From Escherichia phage 212, in sequence record PQ765507: a DNA stretch of 64,000 nt; one strand, 5' to 3'. Shown here in pieces: positions 40,403-40,684 of this stretch. The notes beneath the pieces are model-generated. The model was not told the origin of the DNA. It did not search any database and saw only the letters and a program-made list of their open reading frames with translations. The position numbers and the translations under genes were made by a program. Each line of letters begins with the position of its first letter. Within the stretch, counting starts at the first letter, position 1.

Positions 40403-40684
40403 ATGAACAAATCAACTTTCCTTCTGAACACCTTTAAAAATCTGGAAATTGAAGTTATTGCATTGGTCAACAAATACCCAAATGGTGTTAATGGTAATGC
40501 TCTGAACAAACTAGTTAAAAAATATGAAAACTTAGCATATGACACTGATTTCTGGTGGAATGGTAATTATTCTACTCACACTAAAGATAAAAATGGTAAT
40601 TGGTTGAAACTTCAAGAAAACAATGTTAACTTCAGAGACCTCATCAAGCGCCGGGTAGAAGTTCATTTAAATGGTATGGTATGA
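40403..40684 (+). CDS. hypothetical early protein embedded between gp24 and gp23
   Basis: 93 aa; own early promoter (GTTTAC...CATAAT) and a terminator; opposite strand to the flanking late genes. Confidence 0.55.
   Translation: MNKSTFLLNTFKNLEIEVIALVNKYPNGVNGNALNKLVKKYENLAYDTDFWWNGNYSTHTKDKNGNWLKLQENNVNFRDLIKRRVEVHLNGMV

Follow-up and report, generated by a model that had tools for sequence, protein, structure and literature searches.

A probable early accessory-gene cassette in the spacer between the gene 23 and gene 24 late units of Escherichia phage 212

What is a small plus-strand gene doing between two capsid genes that are both read from the minus strand? The question is raised by positions 40403-40684 of a 64,000-nucleotide stretch of Escherichia phage 212 (sequence record PQ765507; the whole stretch is called the window below), where an open reading frame (ORF) of 93 residues, here orf93, lies between gene 24 (39015-40295) and gene 23 (40729-42288). 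An initial annotation had drawn attention to this arrangement, and described it as an early-expressed insert in the middle of the late structural operon, with its own copy of an early promoter, a bidirectional terminator and an Asn/Lys-rich product of unknown function. The ORF and its neighbours are indeed placed and oriented in this way. The explanation that we favour, and consider probable though far from certain, is that orf93 belongs to a self-contained early accessory-gene cassette in the spacer between the late units of gene 23 and gene 24. The parts of the cassette are as follows.

40336-40342, plus strand: -35 element GTTTACA of a T4-type early (sigma-70) promoter, invariant in VR7, JS98, PhAPEC2 and RB69, and ATTTACA in T4
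40360-40365, plus strand: -10 element CATAAT, 17 nt after the -35 element, from a promoter scan
40392-40395, plus strand: Shine-Dalgarno sequence GGAG, 7 nt before the ATG, read from the sequence; GAGGAG in JS98 and PhAPEC2
40403-40684, plus strand: coding sequence of a basic, Asn/Lys-rich protein of 93 residues, of the VR7ORF190c / JS98 orf173 / RB69ORF188c family (phrog_6003)
40693-40714, no strand assigned: GC-rich hairpin of 9 bp, intrinsic terminator of gene 23 and probable weaker 3' end of the early transcript, called from compensatory changes and an RB69 prediction

The product of orf93 matches the family phrog_6003 (unknown function) with an expectation value (E) of 8.8e-47, residues 1-90 falling on profile positions 1-90 of 90, and a tblastn search found homologues in 237 phage records, one copy each, with 238 matching places in all. 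The gene's place between genes 23 and 24 and its orientation are unchanged in Gaprivervirus, Dhakavirus and Mosigvirus, where the proteins are 92-99%, about 62% and about 35% identical to that of the window, respectively. Ratios of nonsynonymous to synonymous substitution (dN/dS, Nei-Gojobori method) were 0.19 between the window and VR7 and 0.14 between JS98 and phage 04086; between genera the synonymous sites were saturated, and the proportion of nonsynonymous differences (pN) was only 0.22-0.24. This pattern points firmly to a real protein-coding gene under purifying selection, one whose product already figures as a hypothetical protein in the annotation of more than 200 genomes, and both the conservation of the ORF and the comparison of the 24-23 intergenic region across three genera speak for the gene that had been proposed. 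Its G+C content of 0.326 is the lowest among the 34 plus-strand ORFs. Because G+C at third codon positions (GC3, 0.33) is normal, the low value is accounted for by the Asn and Lys codons, and a recent foreign origin, which the base composition might have suggested, was rejected on the same grounds.

The limits of the inserted DNA were apparent from a survey of this junction, which we call the slot, in 80 viral contigs and several reference genomes. The flanking features in the window are these.

39015-40295, minus strand: gene 24(1), capsid vertex protein of 426 residues, left neighbour of the slot; named after the VR7 annotation 24(1)/24(2)
40301-40308, minus strand: Shine-Dalgarno sequence of gene 24, AAGGAAAG on the minus strand, read from the sequence and conserved in the alignments of relatives
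40322-40329, minus strand: late promoter box TATAAATA of gene 24, read from the sequence; invariant TATTTATAAA in all relatives, empty slots included
40729-42288, minus strand: gene 23, major capsid protein of 519 residues, right neighbour of the slot

The slot is empty in most T4-like genera. Where it is empty, as in Enterobacter IME523/Kosakonia 305-like phages, Edwardsiella PEi20, Klebsiella Marfa, RB14 and most Tequatroviruses, and also in five other enterobacterial-type contigs, the spacer measures only 85-95 nt and is made up of the hairpin of gene 23, the late-promoter box and the ribosome site of gene 24. Some further phages of the phage 133/KP15-like kind likewise retain just the box and the hairpin. 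Where the slot is occupied, the extra DNA lies exactly between the box and the hairpin, and therefore what varies is the promoter with the ORF, and the hairpin belongs to the site as the resident terminator of gene 23. Set beside the short spacers of these relatives, the promoter and ORF of the window are an insert between late genes, as had been claimed. The slot is a compositional island as well, with a G+C content of 0.30-0.33 versus 0.42-0.50 in its flanks. The placement in the middle of a late operon did not hold. Gene 23 and gene 24 each form a late transcription unit of their own, with a terminator after gene 23 and a box of its own for gene 24, and so the ORF stands at the boundary of two units, not within an operon. 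Further to the left the rnlB unit stops at a hairpin (37715-37732), leaving no upstream source of transcription into the ORF.

Occupied slots carry different genes. In T4 this slot holds the homing endonuclease gene segD, likewise on the opposite strand, behind TATTTATAAAGTTATTTACA-17-TATTAT and followed by the same kind of hairpin, and its promoter aligns with the slot promoter of the window, JS98 and RB69. An IME341-like Dhakavirus (contig L026, 3971-5076) has the promoter, orf93, a 3-nt gap, a segD-like gene and the hairpin in one unit, and the same tandem of orf93 and a segD-like gene is found in phage 04086 (L005, 3767-4500); the tandem GIY-YIG gene encodes 223 residues and is 56% identical to T4 SegD. 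The segD-like gene of 04086 carries no annotation, and the annotation of the neighbouring gene 23 is shortened in that phage. A KP15-like phage has a segD-like gene in the slot on the other strand, and an Acinetobacter-133-like phage has a different insert of 1.6 kb.

The promoter assigned to the ORF by the initial annotation was recovered, and it is conserved across four genera, T4 included. Its core TTTACA-17-CATAAT (40337-40365, plus strand) agrees with the E. coli consensus at 10 of 12 positions and is among the two best sigma-70 matches in 8.5 kb; the transcription start is predicted near 40372. It lies on the early strand, 37 nt upstream of the ATG and correctly oriented for the ORF, and has the GTTTAC -35 element and the spacer of 17 +/- 1 nt of T4-type early promoters. 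At the same spacing JS98, RB69 and T4 have TACTAT or TATTAT as their -10 element. An A/T-rich region resembling an UP element, TTTATTTATAAAAG at 40320-40333, is invariant in relatives, and, relative to the early promoter, the AT-rich stretch of the gene 24 late box occupies about -43 to -50, the place expected of an UP element; the early promoter and the gene 24 late promoter are back to back and overlap. In the window at large the late structural genes are on the minus strand and the early and middle genes on the plus strand, GTTTAC-type promoters number 7 on the plus and 2 on the minus strand, and a stricter pattern for this promoter type gave 4 matches versus 0.12 expected.

In RB69, Nolan et al. 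2006 (PMC1524935) had predicted an early promoter at 109555-109605 on the minus strand (Pe:109605), a late promoter at 109573-109615 on the plus strand (Pl:109573), in the place homologous to the gene 24 box, and a terminator at 109234-109251 labelled '23-><-RB69ORF188c'. The layout is therefore not new: its promoters, ORF and shared terminator were predicted in RB69 in 2006, the gene lying on the opposite strand between genes 23 and 24 of T4 counts as a textbook oddity, and the literature has known the arrangement since 2006-2010.

The word 'copy', as applied to the promoter, turned out to be literally true. Two features bear on its history.

40360-40383, plus strand: exact 24-nt copy of the -10 element and 5' untranslated region (5'UTR) of the gene 30.8 promoter (15259-15282); 2 matches, 0 expected by chance
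15200-15305, plus strand: related promoter cassette upstream of gene 30.8, made up of a hairpin, an AT-rich stretch, GTGTACA-16-CATAAT and the same 5'UTR

The copy consists of the -10 hexamer and 18 nt of leader, and the gene 30.8 cassette would be its source or its sister. To the left of the -10 element the late-promoter box and GTTTACA are identical to the JS98 slot, and the spacer matches neither the JS98 slot nor the gene 30.8 promoter. A left part like that of JS98, joined to a -10 element and leader like those of gene 30.8, makes the slot promoter of the Gaprivervirus lineage a mosaic, in which the -10/5'UTR was replaced by that of the gene 30.8 promoter. About 8 places per Gaprivervirus genome match the slot promoter region. 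In VR26 the spacer between genes 30.9 and 30.8 holds a canonical unit of hairpin, AT-rich stretch and promoter, which is the arrangement of the promoter-early stem-loop (PeSL) cassettes of T4-type phages (Arbiol et al. 2010, Comeau et al. 2014), and its hairpin GGGACTCTTCGGAGTCCC is the slot hairpin sequence as read on the gene 23 strand. Since the -10/5'UTR of the slot is a copy of that of gene 30.8, PeSL-like exchange between repeated promoter and hairpin motifs appears to have reshaped the cassette.

The same spacer of the window (14814-15305), between gene 30.9 (14647-14808) and gene 30.8 (15306-15674), contains an extra ORF of 116 residues (14851-15201, no Pfam match) with its own hairpin (15200-15215). 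In VR26 hairpin and promoter form one undivided spacer (contig L106), and in the window this ORF lies between the two; it is common to phage TH54 and absent from VR26, and looks like a textbook modular insertion of the PeSL type.

The hairpin downstream of orf93 has a predicted energy of -14.6 kcal/mol on the plus strand and -15.2 kcal/mol on the minus strand (z = -3.7 and -3.4), and its stem shows compensatory changes in VR7, JS98 and T4. Of the bidirectional terminator that had been described, the hairpin itself stood, being a stable stem of 9 bp that the scan accepts as a terminator on either strand of the window, but a good and conserved U-tract is present in the gene 23 direction only. 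The minus-strand tail UUUCUUGUUUU is such a tract, and the gene 23 side is always U-rich. The plus-strand tail UUAAAUUUAUU passes a simple scan but is interrupted by A's, and a plus-strand U-tract is absent in JS98 (AUAAUAAGG) and T4 (UAAAAUUGUG); the window is the only case that scored as a terminator on both strands. We read the hairpin as mainly the terminator of gene 23, which for the early transcript might act as a weak terminator or as a 3' stabiliser, and some antisense read-through into gene 23 may take place.

The hairpins at 14814-14834, after gene 30.9, and at 40692-40712 are exact reverse complements of each other over 21 nt (GGGACTC-TTCG-GAGTCCC+TTT); the gene 23 stems of close relatives differ (VR7 GGGACC..GGTCCC). 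This suggests either an exchange of hairpins between sites or convergence on a limited set of UUCG-loop stems.

The timing of the cassette was approached through T4 segD. In the time-resolved omics study of Wolfram-Schauerte et al. (PMC9697503) segD is classed as an early RNA and a middle protein, SegD being detected from 1-5 min with a plateau by 12 min, and gene product 24 (gp24) rises only after 12 min. By analogy we infer early transcription of orf93 in phage 212. The review of Edgell et al. 2010 (PMC2988022) names segD as the one T4 endonuclease gene oriented against its neighbours, and states that no segD-specific promoter had been found and that transcript levels might be vanishingly low. 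The GenBank records of T4 have no promoter annotation at this site. A TTTACA-17-TATTAT sequence does lie directly upstream of segD (contig L007, 3233-3324; about 107233-107322 of NC_000866), homologous to the slot promoter of JS98, RB69 and VR7, and this conserved candidate promoter together with the omics data argues against the statement that segD has none. The comparison thus supplies a plausible candidate sigma-70 promoter for T4 segD, which would explain the early expression of segD in the omics data.

Put together, the cassette would work as follows. During the first minutes of infection, the sigma-70 RNA polymerase of the host, still unmodified, would start at GTTTACA-17-CATAAT, with the AT-rich late-promoter box of gene 24 perhaps doubling as the UP element. 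An mRNA of about 350 nt would be translated from the GGAG site into a basic soluble protein of 10.9 kDa, and the transcript would mostly end at, or be stabilised by, the terminator hairpin of gene 23. Later, expression could be shut off by three routes, namely the loss of early-promoter use, the presence of polymerase with gene product 55 (gp55) on the overlapping, back-to-back TATAAATA promoter of gene 24, which might occlude the early promoter, and converging late transcription from gene 23. Ordinary homologous recombination in the conserved capsid genes is the probable means by which the cassette spread. In its workings it is an ordinary cassette of an early ORFan, comparable with morons and PeSL cassettes.

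Several points weigh against this explanation. The -10 hexamer begins with C, where T4-type early promoters have the form TAnnnT. In a simple promoter scan the sigma-70-like sites of the region were not above those in shuffles (13 versus 16.8), and therefore the promoter call rests on conservation and the T4 analogy, not on motif statistics. The poor U-tract on the plus strand makes termination of the early transcript at the hairpin uncertain. For the phages that carry the ORF, early timing rests on the analogy with T4 segD, and the 'early' class of PMC9697503 is itself broad, with 215 genes of onset within 4 min and early promoters not separated from middle ones. A literature search found no study of the ORF, no usable transcriptomes of RB69-, JS98- or VR7-type phages and no antisense or 'anti-late' RNA at gene 23.

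The protein itself contains 18% Asn and 11% Lys, together 29% versus 12% in the background, which confirms the Asn/Lys richness that had been noted. It has an isoelectric point of 9.4, a mass of 10.9 kDa and no hydrophobic segment. AlphaFold2, run on an alignment of nine sequences, returned a model with a predicted local distance difference test score (pLDDT) of 87 and a predicted template modelling score (pTM) of 0.70, in the order helix, helix, beta-hairpin, helix. The predicted fold is compact and confident and has no match to known folds. The residues conserved across the family are an NGNAxN motif at the start of helix 2 and W51 and Q71 in the beta-hairpin. Foldseek found nothing in the PDB at E <= 0.001, and in BFVD its sole match at this threshold was an unnamed viral protein of 88 residues with 32% identity, evidently a relative; these structure searches of PDB and BFVD showed no similarity to known capsid or chaperone folds. 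There was no match in Pfam at E <= 10 and none in NCBIfam, and a sequence search of the PDB with the family profile gave weak, unconvincing matches only, the best (E = 0.0095) to a designed coiled-coil protein. An unknown function, as the initial annotation had it, is thus what family, domain and fold searches returned.

An exhaustive profile search of 1.84 billion proteins found ten proteins. Among the matches P0013 (Big_2 and LRR_5 repeats) and P0017 (Filamin-type Ig-like repeats) are giant proteins with many weak, repeated profile matches, and they were rejected as homologues, their scores being spurious sums of matches on beta-hairpin repeats; the resemblance is probably limited to the beta-hairpin motif. 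Other identities were also considered and set aside. A winged-helix or helix-turn-helix DNA-binding protein was considered for the helix-helix-hairpin order and the basic isoelectric point, and no structural match to either kind of domain was found. A homing endonuclease of the seg or mob type was rejected, since the Pfam search showed no GIY-YIG or HNH domain, and a relation to SegD was rejected as well, the hhalign comparison with T4 SegD giving a probability of 0.5%. Our best guess, modelled on the many small early proteins of T4, is that the protein is no capsid component but a non-essential factor, directed at the host or related to defence, with an acidic protein or a nucleic acid as its binding partner.

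The gene also shows signs of loss and of movement. Compared with PhAPEC2, the copy in RB69 (NC_004928, 109291-109531; contig L008, 6292-6532) has two frameshifts that divide it between ORFs 188c and 189c, and may be a pseudogene or may reflect a pair of old sequencing errors. Shortened versions occur in other isolates and in metagenomes. The frameshifts and the truncated variants point to a gene that is dispensable, at least in the laboratory. One homologue was found out of context, in Acinetobacter phage ABPH49 (Vequintavirinae), among small ORFs on the same strand, with hairpins on its flanks and away from the capsid genes, and therefore the gene passes from one phage family to another and need not have capsid genes as its neighbours.

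Four other explanations were weighed, and all of them fit the data less well than an early cassette. The first is that the promoter and ORF are passengers of homing endonuclease traffic, SegD-like GIY-YIG enzymes targeting the junction and co-conversion carrying both along without benefit. The segD-like gene 3 nt after the ORF stop in the IME341-like phage and in 04086 would fit such traffic well, as would T4 segD behind the same promoter, the segD-like gene on the other strand of the KP15-like slot and the frameshifted ORF of RB69. Yet most carriers (Gaprivervirus, Mosigvirus and JS98) have the ORF without an endonuclease, a dN/dS well below 1 indicates selection on the protein itself, and the profile comparison shows the ORF to be unrelated to SegD, so that we consider a mere passenger unlikely.

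A second possibility is that the product is RNA, the early promoter firing antisense against gene 23 and damping premature synthesis of the major capsid protein, or else competing with the late promoter of gene 24, with the ORF incidental. The poor U-tract on the ORF strand, worse still in JS98 and T4, would allow it, the two promoters overlap back to back, and the promoter has been kept in T4 where the cargo is different. Against an incidental ORF stand the clear purifying selection, the retention of the protein down to 35% identity with invariant residues, the conserved ribosome site and the ABPH49 homologue, which has no antisense context. The promoter is moreover absent from most T4-like phages, most Tequatroviruses among them, hence there can be no general need for it in the control of capsid genes. 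We regard an RNA product as quite improbable.

Still less probable, and in our opinion a very long shot, is a role related to the capsid, whether as an assembly helper for gp23 or gp24 or as a factor inhibiting host defences that recognise the major capsid protein. Position is all that suggests it in the slot, along with the duplication of gene 24 in two of the same genera, Dhakavirus and Gaprivervirus. The promoter, however, is of the early and not the late type, many phages with a gp23 of 83-90% identity lack the gene, Mosigvirus has the gene together with one gene 24 instead of two, the Vequintavirinae homologue is away from capsid genes, and known capsid and chaperone folds gave no similarity. 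The last explanation, a chance open frame in AT-rich spacer DNA, might be entertained for a short ORF with the lowest G+C of the 34 and no known domain, but is already refuted by the conservation pattern (phrog_6003 at E = 9e-47, 237 syntenic homologues, dN/dS of 0.14-0.19), beside which stand the confident structure prediction and the normal GC3.

The early accessory-gene cassette thus remains our preferred explanation, and taken alone it matters little, adding one more small early ORFan of a T4-like phage. There is perhaps a slim chance of something more, in which the 93-residue protein would be a new early anti-defence or host-takeover factor with an unseen fold, whose position by gene 23 is not accidental (for instance in pre-empting host systems triggered by the capsid), or in which the promoter would also provide antisense control of gene 23. 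The protein family is a reasonable low-priority candidate for screens of phage anti-defence or host-takeover functions. What is new here is modest, namely the series of slot states, the promoter held in common with T4 segD and the promoter mosaic with gene 30.8. The slot may be empty or may hold the ORF, the ORF with segD, or segD alone, the occupied states lying behind one conserved early promoter, and this makes the spacer a tidy model for the entry of accessory genes and homing endonucleases into the structural core of T4-type phages without disturbance of late transcription.

As to the phage itself, the 600 bases around the ORF are 100% identical to Escherichia phage DCP80 and 91-95% identical to VR7, VR20, VR25, VR26, SP18 and about 25 other Gaprivervirus coliphages, which places the window, by its closest matches, in a VR7-like T4-type phage of the genus Gaprivervirus (Straboviridae, Tevenvirinae). 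The record of DCP80 (PQ671644) is called a complete genome at only 141 kb, and in it gene 24 is reduced to an ORF of 96 residues and joined to tail-fibre genes (gp37, assembly protein; contig L001, 5806-6096). Because the window holds two full copies of gene 24 at this place, the DCP80 record would seem to be rearranged, deleted or misassembled. The second copy is the following.

37731-39014, minus strand: gene 24(2), second copy of gene 24, 427 residues, from the VR7 annotation

In close relatives the two copies of this tandem duplication (37731-40295) are about 55-57% identical to each other; the duplication is present in VR7, JS98, IME523-like and Marfa-like phages and not in T4, RB69 or PEi20. 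The hairpin at 37715-37732, between rnlB and gene 24(2), scores as a terminator on both strands. A PeSL-like unit of hairpin and promoter lies upstream of gene 24.3 (35998-36092), and the early island 24.3-24.2-rnlB is thus bracketed like the orf93 cassette.

How the cassette relates to known systems can now be stated. Morons are autonomous units of promoter, gene and terminator between late-operon genes; their definition comes from temperate phages, and their expression is typically from the prophage. The window has in common with them a single gene with its own promoter and terminator between structural genes, absent from close relatives and forming a compositional island, but phage 212 is virulent and expression would be expected early in lytic growth.

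With PeSL cassettes the slot has in common the bracketing of a small ORFan by a GC-rich hairpin and a strong sigma-70-like promoter whose upstream region is AT-rich. It also has the polymorphism of presence and absence with breakpoints at the motifs, and the repetition of promoter and hairpin sequences in the genome. It differs in having no stem-loop upstream of its promoter, that place being taken by the late promoter, Shine-Dalgarno sequence and start codon of gene 24, and in that its hairpin is the resident terminator of gene 23 and its site is in the conserved late core instead of a hyperplastic region. For want of the upstream stem-loop, membership of the slot cassette among canonical PeSLs was rejected.

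The segD locus of T4 is like the window in the slot, the opposite strand, the fusion of the late-promoter box with an early-type promoter (A/G)TTTACA-17-TAYTAT and the hairpin of gene 23, and unlike it in its cargo, which is unrelated, the 93-residue protein having neither a GIY-YIG motif nor similarity to SegD; most Tequatroviruses, unlike T4, have neither segD nor the ORF. RB69ORF188c/189c, JS98 orf173 and VR7ORF190c are orthologues of orf93, with which they have position and signals in common. Within this family the RB69 copy is set apart from that of the window by its frameshifts, and the Gapriverviruses, the window included, are distinguished from JS98 and RB69 by having exchanged the -10/5'UTR of the slot for that of the gene 30.8 promoter.

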